Assembly: GCA_963718615.1 (NCBI GenBank)
Contig: OY970368.1
Location: 5,152,001 to 5,216,000, forward strand
Direction of reading: 5' to 3'
From: an uncultured cyanobacterium
GTDB lineage: Bacteria > Cyanobacteriota > Cyanobacteriia > PCC-9006 > JAAUQQ01
Length of the DNA: 64,000 bases
In this document: piece by piece, positions 6,211 through 51,182 of the stretch
Layout of the letters: each line of letters begins with the position of its first letter
Position numbering within the stretch: position 1 is the first letter of the stretch
The notes under the pieces: model-generated
Databases searched by the model: none
What the model was told of the DNA's origin: nothing
What the model saw: only the letters and a program-made list of their open reading frames with translations
Program-made: the position numbers and the translations under genes

Positions 6211-7689
6211 ATGACTCCTGACAAAAATATCCTCACCAACGCCGCTGGCATTCCCGTCCCCAGCAACGACGTCTCTAAAGGCATTGGCAAGCGAGGGCCG
6301 CTGCTGCTGGAGGATTACACACTGCTAGAAAAAATGGCCCACTTCAACCGGGAGCGGATTCCCGAGCGGGTGGTTCACGCCATTGGTGCGGGAGCCTACG
6401 GAACATTGACGGTGACCGAGGATATTACCCACCTAACCAAGGCCAAGCTGTTTTCCGAGGTGGGCAAAGAGACCGAAATGTTTGTCCGCTTCTCGACCGT
6501 GGCCAAATCCAAAGGTGGCTCCGATATCTATCGGGATTTGCGAGGCTTTGCCATGAAGTTCTATACCGAGGAGGGCAACTGGGATCTGGCGGGGAATAAT
6601 ACGCCGATCTTTTTTGTGCGTGACCCGATGAAGTTTATGGATTTTATTCGGTCTCAGAAAGAGCATCCCGAGCAGCACTGGCGACAGGATGAAATGTGGT
6701 GGGATTTTTGGTCTTTGGTGCCGGAAAGTATTCACCAGGTGTTGTGGCTGATGGGCGATCGCGGTGCTCCCATGGGCTGGCGGCATCTCAATGGCTATGG
6801 TAGCCACACCTTTAGCTTCATTAACGATCGCGACGAACGCACCTGGGTCAAATTCCATTTCAAGACGGACCAAGGCATCAAAAACTTTACCGAAGAGCAG
6901 TGGCAACAGATGCAGGGCATCGAACCCCGCTGGGCCACGAAGGATCTGTACCAGGCGATCGACCAAGGCAACTATCCCTCTTGGACGATGTACATCCAGA
7001 CGATGACCGATGAGCAGGCTGCCACATTCCCGTGGAATCCGTTTGACCTCACGAAGATTTGGCCCCATGCGGATTATCCGCTCCAGCGGGTCGGTCGGTT
7101 TGAGCTCAATCGCAATCCCGACAATTATTTTGAAGAAGTCGAGCAAGCAGCGTTTTCGCCGGGTAATGTCGTACCGGGAATCTCCTGGTCCCCAGACCGG
7201 ATGCTCCAGGCCCGGATCATGTCCTACGCCGATGCCCACCGCTATCGCCTCGGCGTCAACTACGACACCTTGGCGGTGAATCGCCCCCACGCCACGGAAG
7301 CCAACACGCCCTACCGGGATGGCTCAATGCGTGCCGATGGTAACAATGGTTCGCGCATCAACTACAGCCCGACGCACCGCGATTATCCTAGCGTCGACGC
7401 CAAAGCCAAGGAGCCGAGCCATCACGTTGAGGGCATGGCAGGCCGCATTGAGCTGGATGAGCCCGACCACTTTGACCAAGCTCGCATGTTTTACCAAATG
7501 CTGGACGACGACGCCAAGGACCGGCTTGCCCACAATATTGCGGGTAGTTTGGGCAAATGCGCACCGCCCATTCAGGATGCACAAATGAACCTGTTCCGCC
7601 AGGTAGACAAGCAGTTGGCTCAGCAAGTCAAAGCCAAAATGCAAAGCGAAGAACCGCCTAAACCAGAGCCGATGCCTGCGAGTGTGTAG
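6211..7689 (+). CDS. Monofunctional heme catalase (small subunit)
   Basis: FNRERIPERVVHA, VRFSTV, GNNTPIFF and RIMSYADAHRYRLG heme-ligand motifs. Confidence 0.95.
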   Translation: MTPDKNILTNAAGIPVPSNDVSKGIGKRGPLLLEDYTLLEKMAHFNRERIPERVVHAIGAGAYGTLTVTEDITHLTKAKLFSEVGKETEMFVRFSTVAKSKGGSDIYRDLRGFAMKFYTEEGNWDLAGNNTPIFFVRDPMKFMDFIRSQKEHPEQHWRQDEMWWDFWSLVPESIHQVLWLMGDRGAPMGWRHLNGYGSHTFSFINDRDERTWVKFHFKTDQGIKNFTEEQWQQMQGIEPRWATKDLYQAIDQGNYPSWTMYIQTMTDEQAATFPWNPFDLTKIWPHADYPLQRVGRFELNRNPDNYFEEVEQAAFSPGNVVPGISWSPDRMLQARIMSYADAHRYRLGVNYDTLAVNRPHATEANTPYRDGSMRADGNNGSRINYSPTHRDYPSVDAKAKEPSHHVEGMAGRIELDEPDHFDQARMFYQMLDDDAKDRLAHNIAGSLGKCAPPIQDAQMNLFRQVDKQLAQQVKAKMQSEEPPKPEPMPASV

Positions 7690-34013: not shown

Positions 34014-34652
34014 TTAGGCTCGTAAAGATTGCCCCGCAACTGCGGCAAACACCAAAAACAATGCTCCCCCCAGGGCTGTTAGCGTCTGCTCCGAGAGGTG
34101 ACCACAGACCCAGCGACCGCAAACTACGGCGATCGCCGCACAAATCCCATGGCCAAGGGTTCCCCCAAAAATCACGCTGAGGGCAGGATGATCTGCGGCT
34201 AAAGCAATGGTGGTGAATTGAGTGCGATCGCCCCACTCTGCCACAAAGACCAGCGAACAAGCCTCCAGCATAATCGCCAGCGGCCCTGTGCGTTTTAGTT
34301 TTGCCTCCGCCGCTGAAACGGCGGCAGCGGCCTCTTCCATTTCATCATCACTCGACCTCTGGGGAGCCATTCGCCAAGCATCGTAGAGCAACTTCAAGCC
34401 AAAGGCTGCAAACAAAACAATTTCTGCAACCTTGACCCAATACTGGGGCAACAACGTTGCCGCCTGCCCGAAGCTTACTGACAGAACCGTCATCGCTGCT
34501 AAGGCGATCATGGCTCCCGCAAAGACCCAGCGGCGCGGATGTTTGGTCGCCAGTAGCGCCCCAATCAAAAAGGTCTTGTCCCCCAACTCAAACAGGGTCA
34601 TGGCCACCAAAGACTTGGTAAACCCTGTCAAAAACACCGTGCTATTGAACAT
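34014..34652 (-). CDS. TMEM165/GDT1 (UPF0016) Mn2+/Ca2+ transporter
   Basis: Two ExGD(K/R)T motifs (ELGDKT, EWGDRT); start set at MFNSTV. Confidence 0.93.
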   Translation of the reverse strand: MFNSTVFLTGFTKSLVAMTLFELGDKTFLIGALLATKHPRRWVFAGAMIALAAMTVLSVSFGQAATLLPQYWVKVAEIVLFAAFGLKLLYDAWRMAPQRSSDDEMEEAAAAVSAAEAKLKRTGPLAIMLEACSLVFVAEWGDRTQFTTIALAADHPALSVIFGGTLGHGICAAIAVVCGRWVCGHLSEQTLTALGGALFLVFAAVAGQSLRA

Positions 34653-34773
34653 ACAAACGCTTCGCTCTGTAACGCTAGGAGGCGGCAGGGTAACAGAGTT
34701 AAAGATTGCAAACCCAAATATCTGACATTTGGCCAAGACACTCCACTCCGTCCACCCAAACCGGTGAACATCG

Positions 34774-35132: not shown

Positions 35133-35900
35133 TCACGAACTCCTACTTTCGCTGGTCATCACTAATGCTTTGGGGCGGGCCGTGGGTTCATTGACCAAAG
35201 GTTCGCGGGAAATGCGCATGAACCGAATTGGCCGAGGAGATTTGAGCAGCGCAATCGGAATTTGTAAGACAACTTCTCCGGTGGATGTCGAGTTGAATTG
35301 ACCACAAAGAACTTTTTGCTCTGGTGTAAATGCCCACAGATGATAACGTTCGCCTTCAGGCAACTGCGGTAAGTTTTGCAGCGCCACCCAAGCATTGCCG
35401 GATTCCAAATCTAAGACCACGCTTCCCGTTGCAGCCTTCGCGACCTGAGTTCCGTGGAGCACAAAGGCTTGGGTTTTTGATTCCTGGAGCGCAGCCACCG
35501 TTGTATCCAGGAGCGCCAAGCGATGGCGCAACACGTAGTTGTTCCAGCTTAGCCCTAGGGTCAAGGCTACAAGCGCTGCGATCGCCCCCCAAATTCCCCA
35601 AGTCATCCCCCCATTCAATCTGCCCTTCGGCCCACTCTGATTGATTCCATTCCAGCTTATTTTTTTTGAGCCCGTTGCTTCTCGGCGGGTCCCTGCCGCC
35701 GCCAAAATCCTCGCCTTGAGCGTTACCGGAGCTGGTTCACAAGCGTCATAGGCGATCAAGCCCACCATGGATTGCAGGGTTTGAAGCTCCCCCTCCAAGG
35801 CTGGCTGGGTCTGCAACCGCTGCTCCACCGCTGCTTGGTCTTCTTCGGTGAGCGACCCTAGGGCATAGCCGATTAATAATTCCCCAGTGCGCTCGTCCAT
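35133..35900 (-). CDS. RskA-like anti-sigma factor 2
   Basis: LLIGYALGSL, LKARILAA, single TM, YHLWAF..LCGQF. Confidence 0.88.
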   Translation of the reverse strand: MDERTGELLIGYALGSLTEEDQAAVEQRLQTQPALEGELQTLQSMVGLIAYDACEPAPVTLKARILAAAGTRREATGSKKISWNGINQSGPKGRLNGGMTWGIWGAIAALVALTLGLSWNNYVLRHRLALLDTTVAALQESKTQAFVLHGTQVAKAATGSVVLDLESGNAWVALQNLPQLPEGERYHLWAFTPEQKVLCGQFNSTSTGEVVLQIPIALLKSPRPIRFMRISREPLVNEPTARPKALVMTSESRSS

Positions 35901-35941
35901 AGTCCTACCCCTCTATCTCCTCTATAGGCTTAGCATGCCTC

Positions 35942-36721
35942 CTAACTTTCAGTCATCAGCACAACATTCTCCTGGGGCGATCGCGGCAATTCTCCCCGCT
36001 TCCCTCGTACCAATCGCATCGAAACCAGTTCACTGGTATATAAAGCTGGATTAACAAAGAGATCTGCGATCGCCGTTTCCCCAGCCTCCACCGAAATCTG
36101 GCCACAGATAATCGCTGAATCTTCCATTATTGCCCAGAGGTAGTAGGTTTCATCCTCGGGCAACGGTACCAGCCGTTGGGCCACCAACAAAACTCGACCT
36201 TGGGTTTCATCGATCACCACCTTAGCCGAAGCCTCAGACGCAGCTTGAGCGGGGTTGGCCACCAACGTCAGGAAGTGGGCTTCCTCAGGGATATGGGCTT
36301 GGGTGGCTTGGACCGTAACCAACTGATGACGGAGACGATAGTTGTCTAATCCAAACCCTAGACCAACCAACAAACTAGCCGCAGCAACCCCCATGGACCA
36401 GCGATGCCAGGAAGGTTGAGGCGATCGCTGCTGGCTCACCAACGCCTGAGGTCGGAGGGCGCGCTGTATACTCCGTTTTGCGAGGGCACGTGTCCCAGGT
36501 GCCGTCCCTTGAGCCGATGCCAGAATTCTCGTTTTTAGGGCGGCTGGAGCCGGTGGAGTGACCTCGCCATGGGCCACTAAAGCTAAGGTTTCTTGCCATT
36601 GACGAAGTTCCTGACGCAGCCACGGCTCATTTTCTAAACGCTGCTCGATCGCGTAGGTTTCTTCCGGCGATAGAGACTGGAGAATGTAACCGATTAACAA
36701 CGACTCAGGATACTCAGACAT
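35942..36721 (-). CDS. RskA-like anti-sigma factor 1
   Basis: LLIGYILQSL, LKTRILAS, single TM, YYLWAI..ICGQI. Confidence 0.88.
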   Translation of the reverse strand: MSEYPESLLIGYILQSLSPEETYAIEQRLENEPWLRQELRQWQETLALVAHGEVTPPAPAALKTRILASAQGTAPGTRALAKRSIQRALRPQALVSQQRSPQPSWHRWSMGVAAASLLVGLGFGLDNYRLRHQLVTVQATQAHIPEEAHFLTLVANPAQAASEASAKVVIDETQGRVLLVAQRLVPLPEDETYYLWAIMEDSAIICGQISVEAGETAIADLFVNPALYTSELVSMRLVRGKRGELPRSPQENVVLMTES

Positions 36722-36823
36722 GGATTAGGAGGAGGGGATAAAGGGGATTAGGGCAAAGAAAAGAACTAACATAAAGTTTATTAAGGGTGGAAAAGGCGTT
36801 AGCCGCTAAAAGACAAAATAGCG

Positions 36824-37375
36824 CTAGATCAAATCATGGAGATTTTTCCTCAACTTCGTAAATCCAAGGCGAAACCAGCTTTTAACGGTACCCAGAGGAA
36901 CCTGCAGCCGCTGAGCAATTTCGGCCTGGGTTAGACCCTCGTAATAGGCCAGTTTCAAGGCTTGACGCTGTTGCTCCGGTAACTCATTCAAGGCGGCTTG
37001 CACACGACGAGTCGTTTCGTCCTGGACAACGTTTTCCAGCGGTTGATTGGGAAACTCCTGTCCGATGTCCCCTCGAATCCAGCGCTGGGCGGTGCGTAGG
37101 GCTCCTTGACGCGATCGCACCCGGTCCAAAGCTCGCGAACGAATCGTCAGCAACAAAAAGCTTCTGAACGAGCCGCGTGCTGGATTATAGGTGCAGTGAT
37201 TCCAGAGGTTGAGAAAGACTTCTTGGACCAAATCTTCCGCTTCCTGGCGCTGCCCTAAAATTCGCAAGGCCAAACCATACATGACGTCCCCATAGCTATC
37301 GTAGAGCGACCCTAGGGCTGAGGCATCGCCTGCCTGAAGCGCTTGAACGATGGCTTGTTCAGAGGTACGGATCAC
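36824..37375 (-). CDS. ECF sigma-70 factor (SigK/RpoT-like)
   Basis: EAEDLVQEVF region 2, LAYYEGLTQAEIA..PLGTVKS region 4; GTG start. Confidence 0.92.
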   Translation of the reverse strand: MIRTSEQAIVQALQAGDASALGSLYDSYGDVMYGLALRILGQRQEAEDLVQEVFLNLWNHCTYNPARGSFRSFLLLTIRSRALDRVRSRQGALRTAQRWIRGDIGQEFPNQPLENVVQDETTRRVQAALNELPEQQRQALKLAYYEGLTQAEIAQRLQVPLGTVKSWFRLGFTKLRKNLHDLI

Positions 37376-37511
37376 AGATCAGCGTCGTATGGATTTTCCA
37401 TAGTTTACCTTGCCTCAGTCAGCAAGACCGGACTTATGGGTTGCGACTTAACTTTTGTTAATTGGATAGCGTTTCTTCACCTCCTTACGGTACTAACGCT
37501 TTTAACTATAG

Positions 37512-37538
37512 ATACGGAGCATCCCTTCATTTAGATCA
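37512..37538 (-). promoter_or_regulatory. Putative ECF promoter (autoregulatory)
   Basis: TGATCT-N16-CGTAT upstream of the sigma gene. Confidence 0.75.
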
Positions 37539-37595
37539 CCCCTGGTCAATCCCATCTCAAAATCCGAGATTTACGAGGTGATGAGGTCACAAGTT

Positions 37596-38900
37596 TTACT
37601 GAGCCAAACCCACATCCCAGCGATCGCGATGTCGTCCAATCGTGACTTGCTCCGCTAGACGCTGCTCGCACAACCGTAGAAGGTCCGCCGTGAAGAGTTG
37701 ACGGGAGGGGAGGCGATCGCCCAGGGCAAGGTGTCGAACCAAGGTCAGGCTGGTGTAGATCGCGATCCGTTGCCGCAAGGCCGTGAGTTGGGCAGGGGTC
37801 ATCTGGGGGGTTTGCAAATCGAGGAAGCTTTTGAGAAAGCGATCGCCCACCGGCTTAAGTGCCAGGGCATAGCCAAGGGTCCGCACACCCTGTTCGATTA
37901 AGTAGCCCAGAAAATTTCCCACATCTACGGCTGGATCACCTAAACAAGCCAGGTCCAGATCAAGAAAATAGAGCCGTTGGCCCATTCGTAGCACCTGATC
38001 CGCAGAAAAGTCGCGATGGATCAACCCTGAAGGGCCAGGGGATAAATCCCAGTCCAATCGATACCCCAACCGGTGACACTGCTCCCACAGGGCCAAAATA
38101 CGAGGCTCCCACTCGGGATGGCGTTGCGCAAGGCGACGCAATTGTTGGTGCAAAACCCTAAATTCCACCCCCAAATCATGCTGCTGAAGCTGCGGCCACA
38201 AGGAGGGCAGCGAGGTCCTATGTCCCCGTTGGGGACTCAAATGTTGTCCATCTAAGGGCGTCTGGTGGAGCTTGTGCAAGGCTTTTGCCATCTGCCGAGC
38301 AAGCAGCATACCGCTGGGTCCCGGCAAAATTTCAGTGACTTCTGTACCGGGAATCCGACGCTGCACCCACTGATTAAAGTCCGCAAACAATCCTAGCGGT
38401 TCGGGAACACTGATCTCATCCAGGCTCTGGTCATCAAAACCCGAGAACCAAAGCGCTCGCTGGATTTCATAACTGCGACGATCCAAACCTTTCGCACGGA
38501 TCTTGCCTAGAACATCGTAGGACCAGCCTGGAGCATCCGGATCAATCCAACGATATTCCACTAAACAGCGCCGACCCGGTTTATGCCGACAGATCCAAAT
38601 TCGCTTTAGAATCTGGGGCTGAGCTTCGCAGTCCGATGCTAATTCATGGGGAAGACTGCGAAACGGCAACGAGCCTTCAGCCTCGGCATTGTGGTAGAGC
38701 TGCTGAAATTGCTGGAGCACCTCCTCTGGATTCACTGCCGCTTTAAGGGTGAATAATGCCGGGTCAGATTGAGCATTGAGGGGATCCAGAATTGCAAGAT
38801 TGGGGGCGATCGCCCCAAAACAAGGGGAGGAGATCGGGGGCATCTCCTGAGAACCAGCGGTGGTGTCAAAGGAGCTTTTAGAAGTCGATAAATGGTGCAT
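37596..38900 (-). CDS. APH/choline-kinase-fold phosphotransferase
   Basis: RHKPGRRCLVEY, VLGKIR, IHRDFSADQV, FLDLDLACLGDPAVD; ATG at 38900. Confidence 0.85.
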   Translation of the reverse strand: MHHLSTSKSSFDTTAGSQEMPPISSPCFGAIAPNLAILDPLNAQSDPALFTLKAAVNPEEVLQQFQQLYHNAEAEGSLPFRSLPHELASDCEAQPQILKRIWICRHKPGRRCLVEYRWIDPDAPGWSYDVLGKIRAKGLDRRSYEIQRALWFSGFDDQSLDEISVPEPLGLFADFNQWVQRRIPGTEVTEILPGPSGMLLARQMAKALHKLHQTPLDGQHLSPQRGHRTSLPSLWPQLQQHDLGVEFRVLHQQLRRLAQRHPEWEPRILALWEQCHRLGYRLDWDLSPGPSGLIHRDFSADQVLRMGQRLYFLDLDLACLGDPAVDVGNFLGYLIEQGVRTLGYALALKPVGDRFLKSFLDLQTPQMTPAQLTALRQRIAIYTSLTLVRHLALGDRLPSRQLFTADLLRLCEQRLAEQVTIGRHRDRWDVGLAQ

Positions 38901-38907
38901 ATAAACA

Positions 38908-38934
38908 ATACGAAGTCTGTTAAAACTTGGATCA
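38908..38934 (-). promoter_or_regulatory. Putative ECF promoter of the kinase gene
   Basis: TGATCC-N16-CGTAT with 7 nt between it and the ATG. Confidence 0.75.
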
Positions 38935-39055
38935 CAACAGGGCAATTGATCGCCAGTTTCAGCCTAAGAACAATCTATGGATCCAATTTTCTCAAGGCCC
39001 AGTCGTCTTTACAAGGAAATTCAGGAGGCCATTTCAAAGAAAAATTATTTCCCAG

Positions 39056-39082
39056 TGATCCAACTAGAGCTTGACTCCGTAT
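39056..39082 (+). promoter_or_regulatory. Putative ECF promoter of the peptide-PCAT-HlyD unit
   Basis: TGATCC-N16-CGTAT. Confidence 0.75.
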
Positions 39083-39289
39083 TAACAGCAGAACATCGCC
39101 CAACCCGTGAGTGAAATCTTCCCTTTATAGCTCTAACTCGGTGGCCCAAAAACTCTAGAGCGAGTAGAGCTCAATTGGATAATGACACTAGAGATTGCCT
39201 AGAACATTGCTTATCACAAGCATTTTCTTATCTCGGCAATCCCGTTTGGCAATTCTGTCAAGTAGCCTTTTATTTCTGTAGAGAACATC

Positions 39290-39472
39290 ATGAAAACGAC
39301 TCAAAAGCCCTCACTATTCACTAAAATCACTCCTGAAGAAGCAACGTTAATTAACGGTGGTCGTCGCGGTCGTGGTGCAGATGATGGCCCAGGCCACGAT
39401 GCAGGGGACGACAAAGGCGGTCGCAGAGGCGGTCGCGGTCGCGGCACAGATGACGGTCCCAATCATCGCTAA
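39290..39472 (+). CDS. Double-glycine leader precursor peptide
   Basis: 24-aa leader ending SLFTKITPEEATLINGG; 36-aa Gly/Arg/Asp/His core; directly upstream of a PCAT. Confidence 0.85.
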   Translation: MKTTQKPSLFTKITPEEATLINGGRRGRGADDGPGHDAGDDKGGRRGGRGRGTDDGPNHR

Positions 39473-39688
39473 GTAACTGCGGTGAACAGACTTAATTCCT
39501 AACTATTCTAAGGCAATGTGTAATTCGCGATCTGTGAGAGATTACAACCGGTCTAGGCAGTTGAAATAGACCTCGTTCTCTTGCATGGACCAGTAACTCT
39601 GATTGGGAAAGATTACACATTGCTGTTACATACCGCTATGACACACCATCGTTAAAAAGCAATTCAGACCCTCACTTTAGCGTTGACT

Positions 39689-41833
39689 ATGGGTTATGCC
39701 AACATCTTGCAGTATAGCGAAGAAGACTGTGGTGCAGCTTGCTTAGCAAGCATCGCTCAACACTATGGCCAGTTCTTCAGCCTCAACCGTGTTCGTGCCG
39801 CCATTGGCACGGGTCAATTGGGTACAACACTGCTAGGATTGATGCAAGGAGCCGATAGTCTAGGCTTTCAGGCAAGAACCGTACGAGTTTCTCCAGATAT
39901 TCTCGATTGGCTTGATGAGATTCCCTTACCCGCCATTCTCCATTGGCAAGGCAACCATTACGTTGTGTTTTATGGGAAACGGGGCAATCAATACGTCATT
40001 GCTGACCCCGCGATTGGCATCCGCTTTGTCTCTAGACAAATCTTGCTCAAAGACTGGAGCCAAGGCGTTACACTCCTCCTAGAGCCGGATCCGCTGCGGT
40101 TCGCGGAGCAACTCGGCGATCGCCCCCAAAGCCTCATCCGGTTTCTACAACCCGCATGGCAGTATCGCGGTTTACTGATTGAAGCGCTGGTTTTAAATCT
40201 CTTCATCGGTGGATTTGCCTTAGCATTGCCCTTGGTCATTCAGGTTTTAACCGACGATATTTTGGTGCGGGGCGATCGCCTACTTTTGGCACGCATCGGC
40301 ATTGCTTTTGTTGTTTTACAGGGGCTCAGCAGTAGCTTAGAGTGGATTCAATCCCAACTCATTGCCCATTTCGCCCAGCGCCTCGAACTTAAACTAGTTC
40401 TTGAATTTTCCCGTACTCTGCTGCGGCTGCCCTTAACCTATTATGAGTCCCACCGCAGCGGTGAAATTGTTAGCCGTTTGCAGGATATTCAAGATATTAA
40501 TCGCTTGATTTCTAAAGTCTTGATTCGATTGCCCAGTCGATTTCTTGTGGCGTTAGTTTCTTTGGGCGTCATGGTCCTGTACAATTCAGCGCTCACGGGA
40601 GTTGCAGTGGCGATCGCGCTCTTCATGTCCTGCTCAACCCTAGTTTGCCTGCCAACTCTGCGGCGCAAAATGCGTCACTTGCTCACCCTTGAAGCGGAAA
40701 ATCAAGGCATTTTGGTTGAAAGCTTTAAAGGGGCCATGACCCTAAAGACCACTGGCGCTTCACCGCAGCTTTGGGACGAGCTCAACATCCGATTTGGGCA
40801 GTTAGCCAATCTAACCTTCCGCACGCTACAGATTAACATTCTCAATCGTAGTTTTTCTGGATTCGCCTTTGGCATCGGCGATATTGCGCTCCTCTGGTTT
40901 GGAAGCCAGTGGGTTTTGAGTGGAGACCTAAGCATTGGGCAGTTGCTAGCCTTTATGGCACTCACCGATAATTTTCTAGCATTTATTGATTTTGGTATCC
41001 AGTTTCTAGATGAGTATGTGCGAGTTAAAGCATCGGTTCAGCGGCTCTCAGAAGTTATTGATACTCCCCATGAGGCTTCATCCCAAGGCGGTCAAGCTCG
41101 GGCTCAGATCTCTTCAAGTGCAGACATTATTTGTGCAGATCTGAATTTCCATCATCCAGGTCGTCCCGAGCTTTTGAAAAATCTTTCGGTTAAGATTCCT
41201 GGCGGTAAAGTCACAGCTCTAATTGGTCCATCCGGCTGTGGCAAAAGTACTTTAACAAAATTAATCACTCAACTGTATAGTCTCCAATCCGGCAGCATTC
41301 GGGTAGGTGCCTATCGCCTTGGGGATCTACAACTAGACAATCTCAGACAACAGATTATTCTAGTTCCTCAAGATGCTCATTTTTGGAGTCGAAGTATTCT
41401 AGAAAACTTCCAGTTTTCGCTCCCTCATGCGAGCTTTGATCAGATTACAAAAGTCTGTCGAATTGCCGAAGCGGACGAATTTATCCAACAACTTCCCCAT
41501 GGCTATCAAACCATCCTAGGAGAATTTGGAGCTAATTTATCCGGTGGACAACGACAGCGGTTAGCGATCGCCCGCGCCCTCCTCTTCGATCCACCCATTC
41601 TCATCTTAGATGAATCGACAGCGGGCCTCGATCCGGTCAGCGAAGCCCATCTCCTCAATCAATTGCTCGCCCATCGACAGGGCAAAACCACATTATTAAT
41701 TAGCCATCGTCCCTCCGTCATTCAACGGGCAGATTGGGTCATTTTTCTAGAGCAAGGTCAACTTAAATTTCAAGGACCCTTGCTGGATTTACAGCGCAAT
41801 CCCGGCGCAGCAGCGAAGTTTGTTGCGCGATAG
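39689..41833 (+). CDS. Peptidase C39-containing ABC transporter (PCAT)
   Basis: QYSEEDCGAAC, HYVV and ADPA triad residues; TM domain; GPSGCGKS, LSGGQRQR, ILDES. Confidence 0.95.
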   Translation: MGYANILQYSEEDCGAACLASIAQHYGQFFSLNRVRAAIGTGQLGTTLLGLMQGADSLGFQARTVRVSPDILDWLDEIPLPAILHWQGNHYVVFYGKRGNQYVIADPAIGIRFVSRQILLKDWSQGVTLLLEPDPLRFAEQLGDRPQSLIRFLQPAWQYRGLLIEALVLNLFIGGFALALPLVIQVLTDDILVRGDRLLLARIGIAFVVLQGLSSSLEWIQSQLIAHFAQRLELKLVLEFSRTLLRLPLTYYESHRSGEIVSRLQDIQDINRLISKVLIRLPSRFLVALVSLGVMVLYNSALTGVAVAIALFMSCSTLVCLPTLRRKMRHLLTLEAENQGILVESFKGAMTLKTTGASPQLWDELNIRFGQLANLTFRTLQINILNRSFSGFAFGIGDIALLWFGSQWVLSGDLSIGQLLAFMALTDNFLAFIDFGIQFLDEYVRVKASVQRLSEVIDTPHEASSQGGQARAQISSSADIICADLNFHHPGRPELLKNLSVKIPGGKVTALIGPSGCGKSTLTKLITQLYSLQSGSIRVGAYRLGDLQLDNLRQQIILVPQDAHFWSRSILENFQFSLPHASFDQITKVCRIAEADEFIQQLPHGYQTILGEFGANLSGGQRQRLAIARALLFDPPILILDESTAGLDPVSEAHLLNQLLAHRQGKTTLLISHRPSVIQRADWVIFLEQGQLKFQGPLLDLQRNPGAAAKFVAR

Positions 41834-41871
41834 GGACCGACCAAACGCTTCAGAGTAGAGGAAAGCAAATT

Positions 41872-43221
41872 ATGCCGCTGGCTCCAGAATCTTCTCCACC
41901 GCCCACACCCTTGACAGATTGGCTCAGCAACTCAGCACCATTACAACGCAGTGAGTTTCTGCCCAGCGCAAGCTGGTCCTTGCGCCTGGGGGGACTGGGG
42001 CTAATGGGAGTCGTCGTGTCCCTGTTGGGTTTGGCCACCACGATACCCTATTCCAATGCAGTCCTAGCAACTGCAACCGTGCGACCTCGGGGAGGGGTTC
42101 AGCAGATTCAGGCTGCTACGACCGGCGTGGTAACCGCCCTTGAGGTTCAGGAAAATCAGCAGGTTACAGCGGGTCAGGTTCTGGTTCAAATCGATACATT
42201 GGAGCTGGAGCGCGATCGCCAAAGCCTTCAACTCAAAATCCAATCCACCGAACAACAGTTGCAGGATCTTTCCAAGGAGGCCCTGGATCTAGAAAAGCAG
42301 TTTGCTGCTCAACAAAATTTTCAGACCCAACGGGAGAGCTTGGGTCGAACTCAACTCGCCCAGGCCCAGGGGCAGCAGCAAGCCCAACACCAGATTGCCC
42401 AAAGCGAATTGGCAGAAGCCATGGCACTGTTAGACCTTGCCCAAGAAGAACAGCAACGCTACGAAGAGCTCACCCAGGCTGGCGCAATCTCTCAACTCCA
42501 ATTCCAGGAAAAGCGACAGGCTTTTAAAGTTGCACAGGCTCGGGTCGCCAAAGCCCGAGCGATCGCCCAACCTCCCATCCATGCCTTAGCCACAATCCAG
42601 GCCGAAATCAACCAAGCCCAAGCCGAAGGCACCGTTCAGCTCGATAGCCTACGCCAAGCCCAACAAGCCCTCCGGCGGGAAACTCATCAATTGCAAACTC
42701 AACTCCAAGAACATCGTCAAAGCCTTCAACACCTGGAAAGCCAACGCAGATCGCATCAAATCAAAGCGCCCAGCGGAGGCACCCTGCTCCAGTTTACCCT
42801 CCGCAATCGCGGCCAAGTGGTCCATCGGGGGGATACCATAGGCCAGATTGTTCCAGCAACGGACTGGGTTATCCAAGCACGAGTGAGCCCTGAGGCGATC
42901 GCCCAGATTAAACGCTGTGATGCTCCTAAGGCTACGCGCCATCGCTGTACCGAGGGACAAGCCCAGGTGCGAATCGATGCCTATCCCTATCCCGAGTACG
43001 GGACCATGGCTGGCTGGGTGACCGAAATCGCCTCAGATACCCAACAATCTCCAGCAGGCAAGGCTTATTACACCCTGACGATTGAGCTAGCGGAACCTGC
43101 TTTCCATCGGCACGGAAAACGCTACCCGTTGCAAGCAGGGATGACGGGCACTGCTGAGTTGCTAGGCCCACCGGAAACGTTATTGCGATTTTGGCTACGC
43201 AAGGTCCGACTGTGGGTCTAA
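41872..43221 (+). CDS. HlyD family membrane-fusion protein
   Basis: N-terminal TM, lipoyl half motifs, long coiled coil, AYPYPEYG, LQAGMTG. Confidence 0.92.
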   Translation: MPLAPESSPPPTPLTDWLSNSAPLQRSEFLPSASWSLRLGGLGLMGVVVSLLGLATTIPYSNAVLATATVRPRGGVQQIQAATTGVVTALEVQENQQVTAGQVLVQIDTLELERDRQSLQLKIQSTEQQLQDLSKEALDLEKQFAAQQNFQTQRESLGRTQLAQAQGQQQAQHQIAQSELAEAMALLDLAQEEQQRYEELTQAGAISQLQFQEKRQAFKVAQARVAKARAIAQPPIHALATIQAEINQAQAEGTVQLDSLRQAQQALRRETHQLQTQLQEHRQSLQHLESQRRSHQIKAPSGGTLLQFTLRNRGQVVHRGDTIGQIVPATDWVIQARVSPEAIAQIKRCDAPKATRHRCTEGQAQVRIDAYPYPEYGTMAGWVTEIASDTQQSPAGKAYYTLTIELAEPAFHRHGKRYPLQAGMTGTAELLGPPETLLRFWLRKVRLWV

Positions 43222-43225
43222 GTTT

Positions 43226-44827
43226 TCACACCACCCCTGACGCAATCATCTGAATGGCCTTGGGCAGGGATGGATCAAAGCCCCCAAAATCCCAAGAATT
43301 GCGGTCCTGGGGATCGGTCAATGTCAGTTGGTTGGGCACCAAGGTGACGTAAACAGCTTTAGCGTTGGGATTGACCCGCTGGCGATAGTCGGCTAGGGCT
43401 TGGCTCGGATGGCGGCGTCCAGCCCAGGATTCACAGTCGGTCCAGAAACAAAAGACATCGGCATGGAAACGATGGGCGATCGCCCAGTCATAGGCCACTG
43501 AAGCATCGGTCCCGCCAAAGTTCTGATCCTGGGCTTTCTGCATCGCCGAGGCGAAGCTATCGCGGGCCGTAATGCCGAGGTCTTTAAACTGGGTGGAAAA
43601 ACCGCGAATGGCGTAGTGATGCTCGGCTTTTGCCGTGGCTAAGGCCAAGGTTGTGGCAATTTCGCAACAGGTGAGGCCCAGGGACGTCACCTGATAAAAC
43701 CCCATGGAACCGGAGATATCGATCGCGTGCAGGAACACCTTGCCCGTTGGCTCCACAACTTCAAAGGAGAGCTCTAGGGCCTGGTCCAAAATATCGACAA
43801 TGCGGGCGATCGGCACCCAAGTTTTAGAACTGCGGCCCAGTTTGCCGCCGGACTGATAGGTCTTGAGCGCTTTGAGAATCTCGATGGGGTGAATCCGTGC
43901 CTTGCGCAGGGCATGGCGATCGCACAACCGTTTCGCCACTTGCTTGAGCTGTTTGCCCTTGTGGGACTGCAATACGCCAATTTGGGTGAGGGACCCGAGG
44001 TTGCGGAGTAAGGCTCCGAGGGGCATCTCTTGAAACAGCAACTGCCAGGCTTCAACATCCATCTGGCCGACGGGCGCGATCATTTCGTGGGTGAGTTTGC
44101 CCTGGGCGATCGCCTCCTTCGTCAGTTTGGGCTGGCGCTTGACCCGCTCATACCACCAAATCTGGGTCATCGCTTCAGACGGCGGTTGTGCAGGCACGAT
44201 ATCCCAACCTTGGGTCACCCACTGAAACAAGGCTTGGTGTTGATCGCTCACGGGTTTGGCATGCAGTAAGCGCAGGGCATCGCGATGGCAGAAGCCATGC
44301 CGTTGTTGATATTTGAGCAGTTGATAGGCCAATTGTTTGGCATTGGGCTGGGAAAGCCAAGCCTTACCGCATTCCCGCACGATTTTGCCAAAGCCCCGCG
44401 TCGATTTGGTGTAGCTCAACCACTCGTAGAAATGGCTGCCGGTGCGAACCACTTGCAAAAACACCTCGGCAAAGGCTTGCTTAGCGGCGTGGGATTCGCC
44501 CATGGAGAGGAGCACAAGGGCAAAAATGGGCGCACTGTTGTTGATCGCACGACCATCGCTAGCGTAGACAATTTCCTGGGCGACGCGCTGGGGATCTTCG
44601 TCCACGCAACGCCAAACGGCATCGACAAAATCGTGGGTGAGTTCGCGCTTGTCGGCATAGAACGAGCCTTGGGCGGTCCCCAGGAGCAAGCAGCGGCGCA
44701 GGTGTTGCCAGCGATCGCTCTTGAACCCATATCCCCCTGATCCAGCCTTGATCATCTCGGCTTGGCGACCGGGAATTGGCTGGGTTTGGGGCGTAGTTTG
44801 GGGGTTGAGATAAAACTGATAGGTCAT
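43226..44827 (-). CDS. TROVE/Ro60 (Rsr) RNA-binding protein with vWA domain
   Basis: RRCLLLG, LKYQQRHG, MPLGALLRNLG, RKARIHP, DISGSM MIDAS, GGTD, WTDCE. Confidence 0.92.
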   Translation of the reverse strand: MTYQFYLNPQTTPQTQPIPGRQAEMIKAGSGGYGFKSDRWQHLRRCLLLGTAQGSFYADKRELTHDFVDAVWRCVDEDPQRVAQEIVYASDGRAINNSAPIFALVLLSMGESHAAKQAFAEVFLQVVRTGSHFYEWLSYTKSTRGFGKIVRECGKAWLSQPNAKQLAYQLLKYQQRHGFCHRDALRLLHAKPVSDQHQALFQWVTQGWDIVPAQPPSEAMTQIWWYERVKRQPKLTKEAIAQGKLTHEMIAPVGQMDVEAWQLLFQEMPLGALLRNLGSLTQIGVLQSHKGKQLKQVAKRLCDRHALRKARIHPIEILKALKTYQSGGKLGRSSKTWVPIARIVDILDQALELSFEVVEPTGKVFLHAIDISGSMGFYQVTSLGLTCCEIATTLALATAKAEHHYAIRGFSTQFKDLGITARDSFASAMQKAQDQNFGGTDASVAYDWAIAHRFHADVFCFWTDCESWAGRRHPSQALADYRQRVNPNAKAVYVTLVPNQLTLTDPQDRNSWDFGGFDPSLPKAIQMIASGVV

Positions 44828-49491: not shown

Positions 49492-50177
49492 AAAACATAA
49501 CTGATATCGGTAGCTTGATGCATCTATATTTAGATGAGATTGATCCTGGGGAAGGCACTGATTGCCCCGATTTTCTCATCAAAGCATCAGCTCAAATACT
49601 CAACCAAAAAGATGAAAGAAATTGGCTACCCGTCATTGTTAAAGAGATTGCTGAAGATCGCTATGAGGTGATTGCAAATTCATTTGTCTATGCGATCGCC
49701 GAAGCAGCGGGTCTAGAGAGAGTTTGGTGCATTATCGCAGATGACAGCGAGAATACAGCCTTAATCAGTCGAGTATTAACTGGTGAGGAAATTCCTAAGA
49801 TCAACCTTTCTAAAGCCTCAAGAGATGAAATTGTAGCAGCTTTAGAATATCTAGCTCAGCAGCCTGGAAGTCTTCTAAAATCTGTGAAAGTCTCAATTGC
49901 CGCTAATCGAATTGATGAAGCTCCTAGGCAATATTGGAAGAATTTTGATGCGATCGCAAACTTAAAATGCGGAATCACGAGAGGGAAAAAACTAGATGCT
50001 TTGAAAAAGGTTTTCTATTTAACCCCTCAGCCTATGCCTGACACAATTTCTGATCCCAAGATTTTAGAGACTATGACGATTACAGATCTAAAAGCCATGG
50101 CAAAGAAACGCAAGATTGTGGGTCTTAGCAAAATGAAAAAGGCCGATCTGGTTAATGTATTAAGTCAAGCTGAATAG
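49488..50177 (+). CDS. Degenerate ParB-like N-terminal domain + Rho_N/HeH C-terminal domain protein
   Basis: ATGA overlap with the ParA gene; PVIVKE..RYEVI..AAGLERVWC; MTITDLKAMAKKRKIVGLSKMKKADLV. Confidence 0.7.
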   Translation: MKNITDIGSLMHLYLDEIDPGEGTDCPDFLIKASAQILNQKDERNWLPVIVKEIAEDRYEVIANSFVYAIAEAAGLERVWCIIADDSENTALISRVLTGEEIPKINLSKASRDEIVAALEYLAQQPGSLLKSVKVSIAANRIDEAPRQYWKNFDAIANLKCGITRGKKLDALKKVFYLTPQPMPDTISDPKILETMTITDLKAMAKKRKIVGLSKMKKADLVNVLSQAE

Positions 50178-50193
50178 TTCAGCCTGCCATCAA

Positions 50194-50323
50194 TGAGGGA
50201 GTAGAACGGGAATCGAACCCGCACCTCGACGGACAAAGGGGGAAAGAGCTTTACAGAGCGATAACCCTCCATCCTACAGCCCTTACGGGCAAAATTGCGC
50301 TCTACCGTTGAGCTATCCACTCC
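50194..50323 (-). ncRNA. tRNA-mimic Y-RNA-like gene B
   Basis: Acceptor GGAGTGGA/TCTACTCC, D arm GCTC-AACGGTA-GAGC, T arm GCGGG-TTCGATT-CCCGT, enlarged centre containing GGGTTATCGC; near TROVE. Confidence 0.75.
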
Positions 50324-50354
50324 ATAAGATATCGAACGAAAATCGAAAGAACAC

Positions 50355-50484
50355 TGAGGCGTGGCAGGGAGGATTCGAACCTCCGACCTCCCGCTTAACA
50401 GGCGATAACCCTTCTTCAACGACCCTCGCGGATAAATAAGTGAATCAGGGGGTTTAGGCGCTCTAGCCTCTGAGCTACTGCCAC
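50355..50484 (-). ncRNA. tRNA-mimic Y RNA (YrlA-like) gene A
   Basis: Acceptor GTGGCAG/CTGCCAC, D arm, inserted long stem (TTTATCC-GCGA-GGGTCGTTGAAGAAGGG), CGC-CTGTTAA-GCG loop, T arm GGAGG-TTCGAAT-CCTCC. Confidence 0.8.
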
Positions 50485-50527
50485 AAAACCTCGGTCTTTC
50501 GGTCTCAGCGTCGGGAGTTGTCCTTTG

Positions 50528-50655
50528 CTGTTGAACCCAGAATAGGCGAGAGCCCATCCCCTAAGCGAGGCAGCGCGGCAATGGGCCAAAAGGCAGACGG
50601 GGAAAGCCATTTCGAGTTCGGGGGAGGCGTTAAGTTGAGGGGAGACCCGAACTTT
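50528..50655 (-). promoter_or_regulatory. Multi-box promoter/operator upstream of the Y-RNA pair (copy 2)
   Basis: Same boxes and spacing as 44874-45002. Confidence 0.65.
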
Positions 50656-50723
50656 ATGGCCCAGCCAACCCCTTGGAAGATACGATGAATGAATCCAAGC
50701 CTTAACCTCCCCGCTGTTTAACC

Positions 50724-51182
50724 GTGGAAATCTGTGCGGACCAAGTTCTGCTCCTCCTGGGACGCCTCAGCCTCGCCCTCCTCCTCGGCGGACTCATCGG
50801 CTTGGAACGCGAGCACCGCCATAAACCCGCAGGTCTTCGTACCCACATGCTTGTCAGTCTAGGGGCAGCGCTGTTTATTCTGGTTCCCCTCAGCATCAAC
50901 TGCATTACCCCTTCCCAAGAAGCCTTGAGCCGCACCATCCAAGGCGTTGCCAGCGGTATTGGCTTTTTGGGAGCTGGGGAGATTTTGCATAGCCAACGCC
51001 AAAACGAAGCCGGCCTTGAACGAGTTCACGGACTCACCTCCGCAGCCTCGCTTTGGGTTTCTGCGGCGTTGGGGGTCGTAGCGGGAACGGGCCAGTGGCG
51101 TTTAGGAATGATGACTGTAACGTTGGTGTTAGGGGTGTTGGTGGGCGCAAAATACATCGAACAGTGGTTCCGGAATCTCTAG
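50724..51182 (+). CDS. MgtC/SapB family membrane protein
   Basis: IGLERE..KPAGLRTH, GIGFLGAG, GLTSAASLW. Confidence 0.93.
   Translation: MEICADQVLLLLGRLSLALLLGGLIGLEREHRHKPAGLRTHMLVSLGAALFILVPLSINCITPSQEALSRTIQGVASGIGFLGAGEILHSQRQNEAGLERVHGLTSAASLWVSAALGVVAGTGQWRLGMMTVTLVLGVLVGAKYIEQWFRNL

Follow-up and report, generated by a model that had tools for sequence, protein, structure and literature searches.

An extracytoplasmic function sigma factor predicted to control secretion of a double-glycine repeat peptide in an uncultured cyanobacterium

We analyzed a 64-kb stretch of DNA ("the window") from an uncultured cyanobacterium, corresponding to positions 5152001-5216000 of a genome (G000) that consists of one contig of 6,095,823 bp (OY970368.1). 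In this window, a sigma factor of the extracytoplasmic function (ECF) type and two anti-sigma factors lie next to a kinase gene and to an operon for a double-glycine (GG) peptide, its peptidase-containing ABC transporter (PCAT) and an HlyD-family adaptor. ECF autoregulation and RskA anti-sigma factors are established, as are GG leaders and export by PCAT/HlyD. Our comparison of promoter sequences strongly supports the assignment of the sigma/anti-sigma genes and the peptide-export unit to one regulon, and the most interesting content of the locus is the peptide itself, which belongs to an uncharacterized family.

Gene content of the cluster

The seven genes and the predicted regulatory sites are listed in Table 1. 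The sigma factor lacks region 3 by Pfam and contains sigma-2 and sigma-4 domains only. It passed NCBIfam model NF009172 (231.5 bits, cut-off 222) and remained below the cut-off of the SigK model NF007228 (138 bits, cut-off 226). Two RskA_C proteins are encoded directly downstream of it, so that an RskA-like anti-sigma factor occupies the +1 position, and its own operon is preceded by a promoter pattern of the ECF group. In the group descriptions of PMC7826278, ECF19 (5.65% cyanobacterial) is linked to RskA at +1 and has a −35 element with ATC and a −10 element with CG or TG, the neighbouring ECF18 uses TGCATCTT/CGTA promoters, and a sigma-4 cysteine pair belongs to only some ECF18/19 subgroups and does not define ECF19. 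Inspection of the sequence revealed no cysteine, and hence no redox cysteine pair, in the sigma-4 part of the factor described here; the redox disulfide switch of SigK therefore cannot apply.

Anti-sigma factor 1 scored 93.6 bits against the NCBIfam anti-sigma model NF052375, below the cut-off of 100. It shares 39-42% identity with the anti-sigma factors of two related loci in other cyanobacteria (L070 and L175, see below), as compared to 32-34% for anti-sigma factor 2, and by sequence is the copy nearer to the single anti-sigma factor of other genomes. The three other peptide-bearing genomes have one such gene each, versus two here.

The precursor peptide had no family match in Pfam or NCBIfam. 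It has the short leader ending in GG, and the adjoining PCAT gene, of double-glycine peptides. Leaders of this type have hydrophobic residues at −4, −7, −12 and −15. The leader ends in ...FTKITPEEATLINGG, and I21, N22, G23, G24 and R25 were invariant in 14/14 homologues. The 36-residue core, of the form RRGRGADDGPGHD...DDGPNHR, has an average mass of 3711.8 Da (monoisotopic 3709.75 Da) and includes two DDGP(G/N)H units, with 12 Gly, 8 Arg, 7 Asp and 2 His. It is zwitterionic, rich in Gly and hydrophilic over its whole length, and lacks any hydrophobic or amphipathic stretch. The core contains no Ser, Tyr or Cys and a single, non-conserved Thr; the C-terminal Thr found in 9/13 homologues is missing from it.

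The transporter carries the C39 peptidase, membrane and ATPase domains of a PCAT on one chain (Peptidase_C39 PF03412, 4.1e-34, 117.7 bits; ABC_membrane PF00664, 1.1e-29, 104.4 bits; ABC_tran PF00005, 3.9e-31, 108.9 bits). The motifs DCGAAC and HWQGNHYVV are visible in its sequence, and we take them to hold the catalytic Cys and His. By architecture the transporter is a PCAT that falls outside two curated subfamilies (TIGR01193 bacteriocin_ABC, 360.1 bits, cut-off 523.85; TIGR03796 NHLM ABC1, 405.7 bits, cut-off 853.3), and it shares 52-61% identity with the PCATs of the four other loci compared (L070, L175, L071 and L072). The spacer between the peptide and PCAT genes is filled by a long imperfect hairpin that may be an attenuator or a processing site; the fold of positions 39470-39690 (minimum free energy −53.5 kcal/mol, z = −1.86) was matched in stability by 8/200 shuffles and is not clearly above chance.

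Among the ORFs (open reading frames) scanned in the region there was no match to LanB/LanC/LanM, YcaO or radical-SAM proteins. The Pfam and NCBIfam results and the ORFs thus agree with an earlier reading of this DNA from its letters alone ("the original prediction"), which had named the same seven genes and found no lanthipeptide, YcaO or radical SAM maturase among them. Its remark that the cluster fits no class of peptides that are made on ribosomes and modified after translation (RiPPs) was fair, but the simplest reading is that of an unmodified, leader-cleaved secreted peptide.

Table 1. Genes and predicted regulatory sites of the cluster (positions in the window)
Feature	Position	Strand	Remarks
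Anti-sigma factor 1	35133..35900	−	N-terminal anti-sigma domain, one transmembrane segment, periplasmic RskA_C (Pfam 3e-13)
Anti-sigma factor 2, tandem paralogue	35942..36721	−	Pfam RskA_C 3.9e-12; 36% identity to copy 1
ECF sigma factor, SigK-like (probably ECF19-type)	36824..37375	−	Pfam Sigma70_r2 + Sigma70_r4_2; 183 aa
Predicted ECF-type promoter of sigma/anti-sigma operon	37512..37538	−	TGATCT-N16-CGTAT; 137 nt before sigma GTG at 37375
APH-fold kinase	37596..38843	−	Pfam APH 6.5e-13; alternative upstream starts 38900, 38945
Predicted ECF-type promoter before kinase	38908..38934	−	TGATCC-N16-CGTAT
Predicted ECF-type promoter of peptide-PCAT-HlyD operon	39056..39082	+	TGATCC-N16-CGTAT; ~208 nt before peptide ATG at 39290
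Precursor peptide, 60 aa	39290..39472	+	Leader residues 1-24 ending INGG (39290-39361); core 39362-39469
Imperfect hairpin in peptide-PCAT spacer	39512..39625	+	Arms GGCAATGTGTAAT / ATTACACATTGC; 12-13-nt perfect outer arms
PCAT (C39 peptidase + ABC membrane + ABC ATPase)	39683..41833	+	Pfam
HlyD-family periplasmic adaptor	41872..43221	+	Pfam HlyD_3 1.9e-13; TIGR01843 136.8 bits, below cut-off 208.65

A shared promoter motif

Scanning the window for TGATCY-N16-CGTAT retrieved three matches, which together span 1.6 kb and are each oriented toward a gene start: that of the sigma operon, of the kinase gene and of the peptide-PCAT-HlyD operon. The mean expected by chance was 0.02 matches, and none of 100 dinucleotide-preserving shuffles contained three or more. 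These scans bear out the claim of the original prediction that three identically spaced, correctly oriented motifs lie in the cluster. It had also proposed scanning the genome for TGATCY-N16-CGTA. On both strands of the whole genome the strict form of the motif (with the final T) occurs five times, and three of these occurrences are the cluster sites. The remaining two, at 2813396 (+) and 4526222 (−), lie inside long ORFs, as judged by their absence from the list of matches outside ORFs of at least 120 aa. When the final T was dropped, we found 15 matches genome-wide, eight of them outside such ORFs.

A simple scan of the three intergenic regions revealed no sigma-70-like promoter. Since no terminator-like site was detected between the kinase stop codon and the sigma promoter, read-through from the kinase gene into the sigma operon is possible. 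An Rfam search of the 35-45 kb region at E values up to 1 returned nothing relevant, and there is therefore no known riboswitch or leader in the long 5' untranslated region (UTR).

Conservation of the regulon in other cyanobacteria

We searched whole genomes with an alignment (A2) of 14 peptide homologues, in which the leader ends in INGG and is followed by R. In a class sample of 400 other genomes, matches at E ≤ 0.01 turned up in 23, but only those in G134 and G210 reached a related core; the rest were leader-only, apart from two weak core-region matches (G164 and G072), and the match in G336 is an unrelated GG peptide. G134 and G406 matched among 71 genomes of G134's family, G000 alone among eight genomes of its order, G210 alone among 17 genomes of its order, and none of 400 other genomes of the phylum did. 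In metagenomes, where the loci of 13 GG-peptide homologues were sought, none of 51 pattern matches was confirmed, and none of the 99 stretches matching a degenerate DNA pattern for INGGRRGRG encodes a member of the family. Despite this sporadic distribution, the cluster shows no compositional island that would signal horizontal transfer, its GC content (0.517) being that of the window.

The three other peptide loci, L070 (G134), L175 (G406) and L071 (G210), come from two other families. Each has the sigma factor (52-54% identity), one RskA anti-sigma factor, a homologous GG peptide and a PCAT (52-62%); hlyD is divergent in G134 and G406, and the G210 contig stops inside the PCAT gene. In all three of these genomes TGATCC-N16-CGTA lies before the sigma operon as well as before the peptide operon. 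It also precedes hlyD in G134 and G406 and, in G406, the gene of an RTX-repeat protein, giving a total of 12 promoter sites in four genomes. Conservation over the 12 sites is not limited to what the search pattern required: C occupies position 6 in 11/12, A position 7 in 8/12, A position 8 in 9/12, and C position 20 in 11/12. When the regions upstream of the peptide gene were aligned across the four genomes, GTGATCC...CTCCGTA was invariant and formed the sole conserved block, with diverged flanks. As the motif is conserved in four genomes and fits the ECF18/19-type pattern in the group descriptions of PMC7826278, these sites are most probably promoters of this sigma factor. The original prediction had placed all seven genes in one regulon; the conserved sites agree with it for the sigma/anti-sigma genes and for the peptide-PCAT-HlyD unit, and not for the kinase as a conserved member.

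In G210, the sigma promoter region (L071, 3940-3964, −) carries three tandem TGATCC boxes 12 nt apart, of which the last alone is correctly spaced to CGTAT.

Homologues of the sigma factor are common, with matches at E ≤ 1e-35 in 251/401 sampled genomes (G000 counted). At the 29 best homologue loci of other cyanobacteria an RskA-type anti-sigma gene adjoined the sigma gene in every case. The TGATCY-N16-CGTA form appeared at four of these 29 loci (the second sigma pair of G134, G319, G271 and G210's own locus), and some of the others carry TGCATCC- or TGAATCC-type boxes. At the sister loci the motif is found both before the anti-sigma/sigma operon and before a divergent or upstream target gene. 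The G134 target is an RTX calcium-binding repeat protein of 237 aa (L221, G134:C5, 9362-10075, +) with DDGANH and DDRGNH repeats at its N-terminus, reminiscent of DDGPNH in the peptide. Its gene lies behind a TGATCC-N16-CGTA site, as does that of the similar RTX protein of G406 (L175, 12456-13160, −), whose N-terminal repeats read DDSGNH. The target in G271, 136 aa long, carries a signal peptide. These targets suggest that this sigma subfamily controls secreted proteins, several of them with a DD-x-G-N-H motif.

The kinase gene

Alignment with its nearest homologues, P0142 and P0002 (55% identity), places the likely start of the kinase at ATG 38843 (415 aa) and not at TTG 38945 of the longest ORF, which leaves a 5' UTR of ~58 nt after the predicted promoter. 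A leaderless mRNA beginning at ATG 38900 was considered and dropped, as the same alignment favours 38843. P0142 and P0002 have HGNF in place of the family's HRDF, which the window copy keeps; this suggests, from sequence, a loss of the catalytic Asp in those two homologues.

The family is large and comprises proteins of ~340 aa with conserved RHKPGRRC and HRDF..DQ motifs; in other phyla, some members occur as fusions with a GT4 glycosyltransferase or a methyltransferase. Of 12 loci in other genomes, 11 have the kinase gene directly behind an ABC exporter gene, and at the twelfth there is a second kinase copy upstream. The fuller clusters read GT28-like, GT4, GT4, MsbA-like ABC and then one or two kinases, which looks like a pathway for export of a phosphorylated glycolipid or oligosaccharide. 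G000 itself has such a canonical cluster at ~675 kb (L179, G000:C1:666000-685999; this conserved cyanobacterial cluster is also seen at L176-L178). A two-component system follows the cluster in G015, and an OprB porin in G031. The window kinase is a divergent paralogue with insertions: its sequence clearly belongs to this APH kinase family (40-48% identity, motifs kept), but the genomic context of the family is not retained, as it has its own ECF promoter and no glycosyltransferase genes nearby.

The structural model of the kinase (predicted local distance difference test score 90) matched only the generic APH fold in a fold search, at a template modelling (TM) score of ~0.5. The matches were choline, methylthioribose and tryptamine kinases, antibiotic phosphotransferases and LxmK. 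A sequence search of the PDB gave one match (E = 0.61), and neither search assigns a substrate.

In the original prediction the kinase is dedicated to the system and phosphorylates the peptide or a co-exported molecule, which is then secreted; a maturation enzyme of this kind would make the cluster a new RiPP-like class. In G000 the kinase gene has the same promoter type as the two operons and lies between them; canonical members of its family always adjoin an ABC exporter, and the APH fold includes peptide kinases, with LxmK structures at ranks 22, 35 and 43 of the fold search carrying the highest identities listed (18-21%) and a weak NCBIfam match to LxmK (36.8 bits). The fold matches that rank best are, however, small-molecule kinases, and 36.8 bits is far under the LxmK cut-off of 315. 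The kinase is absent from the other peptide loci (0/3), and whole-genome searches of G134, G210 and G336 gave no match; the Pfam APH matches of G134 and G406 lie on other contigs than the peptide. Conversely, the family occurs in 28/400 other genomes of the class sample (40-48% identity), none of which has the peptide. The glycosyltransferase and MsbA-like context of the family, together with the GT4 fusions in other phyla, also speaks against a peptide substrate, as do the poor supply of hydroxyl residues in the G000 core and the lack of any HopA1 lyase in the genome (PF17914, no match). The original prediction had itself named the absence of a conserved kinase-peptide linkage in other genomes as evidence against it, and no such linkage was found. 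We therefore consider a maturation role quite unlikely, and the notion of a new RiPP class with a kinase is removed as unsupported. We conclude that the kinase, although co-regulated in G000, is neither conserved with the peptide system nor dedicated to it, and its substrate is more likely an envelope glycan, a glycolipid or another small envelope molecule than the peptide.

A further point on the side of a maturation enzyme comes from G210, where the sigma operon is adjoined by two Arg/Ser-rich peptides with GG leaders and by a fusion of APH and HopA1 domains that is unrelated to the kinase. The fusion protein, an LxmK/LxmY-like kinase-lyase (853 aa; L071, G210:C695, 4042-6603, −; LxmK-like at 82.7 bits, cut-off 315) is encoded directly upstream of the sigma operon, and the two peptide genes (6722-6886, −, and 7287-7499, −), whose cores are almost pure Arg/Ser/Lys/Asn, precede it. 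There is no ECF motif before the fusion gene or its GG peptides, which are possibly a dehydrated-Ser RiPP that shares the PCAT.

A wider family of repeat peptides

The core unit of the peptide, (R/H)G-x-DDG(P/A)(G/N)H, recurs beyond GG-leader peptides. In a scan that covered one genome per species, we found it at 31 loci (L009-L039) in Alpha-, Beta- and Gammaproteobacteria, Actinomycetota, Verrucomicrobiota and one metagenome-assembled genome of the Obscuribacterales. An ORF could be read at 30 of these, with products of ~67 to ~300 aa that contain repeated units (a few of the longest-ORF readings are over-extended), and most of these 30 relatives start with a Sec-type signal peptide as judged by sequence. 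The family is unannotated in the resources we searched: it has no Pfam or NCBIfam model, and a protein atlas returned only unnamed clusters, with scores of 0.81 or lower, for one Sec-type relative; no text search for the motif was made. A PCAT and HlyD were present at L031 alone, and the kinase at none of the 31 loci. At L031, the Obscuribacterales locus, the peptide has a GG leader and is accompanied by a PCAT, HlyD and an OmpR-type two-component system.

Response regulators and histidine kinases lie directly beside the peptide gene in several lineages, of the NarL/HisKA_3 type in Rhodobacterales and actinomycetes and of the OmpR/HisKA type in others. A two-component gene was found within 2 kb at 11/31 loci (0.142 per kb near the gene versus 0.008 per kb farther away). 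That one core is associated with two export routes and with three unrelated kinds of envelope sensor points to a physico-chemical role that is conserved and tightly controlled at each locus. From the Asp/His/Gly composition, the association with RTX proteins and the analogy with sensor-controlled metal binders, we infer that the repeat peptides may bind divalent cations.

The repeat peptides of Pseudomonas follow long Gly/His/Ser runs and adjoin DUF6502 and DUF5666 proteins, and those of Sphingomonadaceae and Lysobacteraceae lie with conserved 250-315-aa proteins for which Pfam gave no match.

In circuits of the ComC/ComAB/ComDE type, a sensor and positive feedback accompany a GG peptide and its PCAT. 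The cyanobacterial cluster mirrors this architecture, with predicted feedback on both the sensor and the peptide operons, and the peptide family adjoins membrane sensors of three unrelated kinds. The RskA_C domain of the anti-sigma factor and, elsewhere, the neighbouring histidine kinases could thus have the exported peptide as their ligand, closing an autoinducing loop that would amount to quorum sensing or self-sensing with an ECF pair in the place of a two-component system. On the other hand, the core motif is near-identical across phyla, unlike strain-specific pheromones, the Sec-type relatives are multi-repeat proteins of up to ~300 aa, and 20/31 Sec-type loci have no sensor within 2 kb. 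The cluster also differs from ComC/Blp quorum-sensing systems in that it contains no histidine kinase and has a core conserved across phyla. Such a loop appears improbable to us.

In a broader version of this idea, the (R/H)G-x-DDG(P/A)(G/N)H peptides would form a previously unrecognised, cross-phylum class of secreted sensor partners that are produced under control of the adjoining membrane sensor and act back on it as ligands or by buffering the cation that it senses, the sensor being an RskA anti-sigma factor in cyanobacteria and a NarL- or OmpR-type two-component system elsewhere. If true, the cyanobacterial member of the class would be an ECF-based peptide autoinduction circuit; we regard this generalization, too, as unlikely.

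An unmodified antimicrobial GG peptide of the class-II bacteriocin type, exported under stress control, would fit the widespread occurrence in cyanobacteria of GG-leader peptides with C39 exporters and HlyD, which are usually filed as bacteriocin clusters (PMC3140520), and the at least five unrelated GG peptides served by the G336 orthologue of the PCAT. The seven-gene cluster, however, contains no candidate immunity gene, its hydrophilic core has no hydrophobic or amphipathic segment, and in many phyla the same core is exported by the Sec route beside sensors rather than beside immunity genes. We thus hold a bacteriocin function to be very unlikely. The G336 locus (L072, 9979-12354, −) is the nearest sigma-less PCAT/HlyD pair (55% identity), followed by the at least five unrelated GG-leader peptides, which are Gly/Trp/His-, Cys/Lys- or Asp/Ser-rich; the presence of several unrelated peptides there points to a PCAT clade of general GG-peptide exporters.

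Proposed mechanism and comparison with known systems

Taking these observations together, we find it likely that the cluster as a whole is an ECF signalling module wired to a peptide-secretion unit. In this mechanism one or two RskA-type anti-sigma factors, each crossing the membrane once, would hold the SigK-like (probably ECF19-type) sigma factor until an extracytoplasmic signal inactivates them, presumably through regulated proteolysis by analogy with SigK/RskA. The freed sigma factor would then read the TGATCC-N16-CGTA promoters. The promoter of its own operon would provide positive autoregulation, the second would drive synthesis of the 60-aa GG precursor, the C39 ABC exporter and the HlyD adaptor, and the third, found in G000 alone, would drive the APH-family kinase gene, a probable lineage-specific recruit to the regulon. 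The PCAT would cut after Gly24 and export the 36-residue core, probably through the single TolC-like channel of the genome, whose OEP gene lies elsewhere (4787496-4788782). Once secreted, the peptides may be disordered and bind divalent cations outside the cell or in the periplasm, their production being called up when needed by the neighbouring envelope sensor.

Several points weigh against this interpretation. The comparative sample is small, with four genomes of which two belong to one genus, and the transcription starts at the three sites are read from sequence. Five of the relaxed motif matches outside long ORFs are distant from the cluster and may indicate a larger regulon. The enrichment of two-component genes near the repeat peptides is biased upward, as the query proteins were drawn from near the peptides, and sensors are missing within 2 kb of the majority of Sec-type loci noted above. 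Composition and RTX association make up the evidence for cation binding in this family. Finally, the co-regulation of the kinase is real, and in this organism the enzyme may be tied in function to the peptide or to its exporter.

The regulatory half of the cluster resembles SigK-RskA of Mycobacterium tuberculosis and the ECF18/ECF19 groups, as far as these are covered in the group descriptions of PMC7826278: an RskA-type single-pass anti-sigma factor at +1, autoregulation, a −35 element with ATC, a −10 element of the form CG(TA), and secreted proteins in the regulon (MPT70/MPT83 for SigK). It differs from SigK-RskA in its two tandem anti-sigma factors and in its targets, a GG peptide with PCAT/HlyD and a kinase, and from ECF18, as described there, in a −35 element of TGATCC in place of TGCATCTT.

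For the export half, the closest parallels are cyanobacterial EbfG and the GG peptide/PCAT systems ComC-ComAB and lactococcin-LagD, with which it shares a leader ending in GG, a C39-ABC exporter, an HlyD-type adaptor and a peptide gene directly upstream. Unlike in those systems, control here is predicted to lie with an adjacent ECF sigma/anti-sigma pair through a shared promoter, and the core is a Gly/Asp/Arg/His repeat that is Sec-exported in other phyla. The EbfG peptides have the GG motif, and some cyanobacterial GG peptides are reported to act in biofilm formation (PMC4997328). Our search of the full-text literature found no account of a PCAT unit that is placed under an ECF/anti-sigma pair.

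SilE/PcoE with SilRS/PcoRS, and ZraP with ZraSR, are small periplasmic metal-binding proteins that are induced by a neighbouring sensor. By analogy, the peptides described here are small secreted proteins that are rich in metal-ligand residues and encoded beside an envelope sensor. There is no sequence relationship between the two sets, however, export here uses PCAT/HlyD and would probably cross both membranes, and metal binding by our peptides is putative. With the class V lanthipeptide system LxmK/LxmY (PDB 9dk1-9dk3; NF038156) the cluster shares an APH-fold kinase gene that adjoins precursor and exporter. By the marks of that class (a kinase above the model cut-off, a HopA1-type lyase and a core with a Ser/Thr/Cys-rich stretch) it is not a class V lanthipeptide cluster, as it has none of the three.

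The pairing of an ECF module with a PCAT unit, behind a promoter that can be read from DNA in four genomes, offers a testable regulon in a phylum, the Cyanobacteria, in which few ECF regulons have been defined. The peptide may be the more useful lead: it represents an unannotated secreted repeat family that extends from cyanobacteria to Pseudomonas and actinomycetes and is found repeatedly beside envelope sensors, and a function found for one member could extend to the whole family.

Neighbouring genes

A GDT1-family divalent cation/proton antiporter gene (34014-34736, −) lies 397 nt downstream of anti-sigma factor 1 on the same strand; since it is missing from the other peptide loci, its link to the cluster may be coincidental. 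At the other end, an Rsr/Ro60 orthologue with TROVE and Ro60 vWA domains (43226-44827, −; NCBIfam Rsr, 321.9 bits, cut-off 900) abuts the end of hlyD. Rfam revealed no Y RNA or YrlA-like RNA, either between 35 and 45 kb at E values up to 1 or in the whole window at gathering scores. Farther away, a 125-nt stretch at 50198-50322 (−) was called as a tRNA by Rfam (41.4 bits, model positions 1-71). ARAGORN reported no tRNA in 49500-51000, and the call may represent an interrupted or intron-containing tRNA gene.

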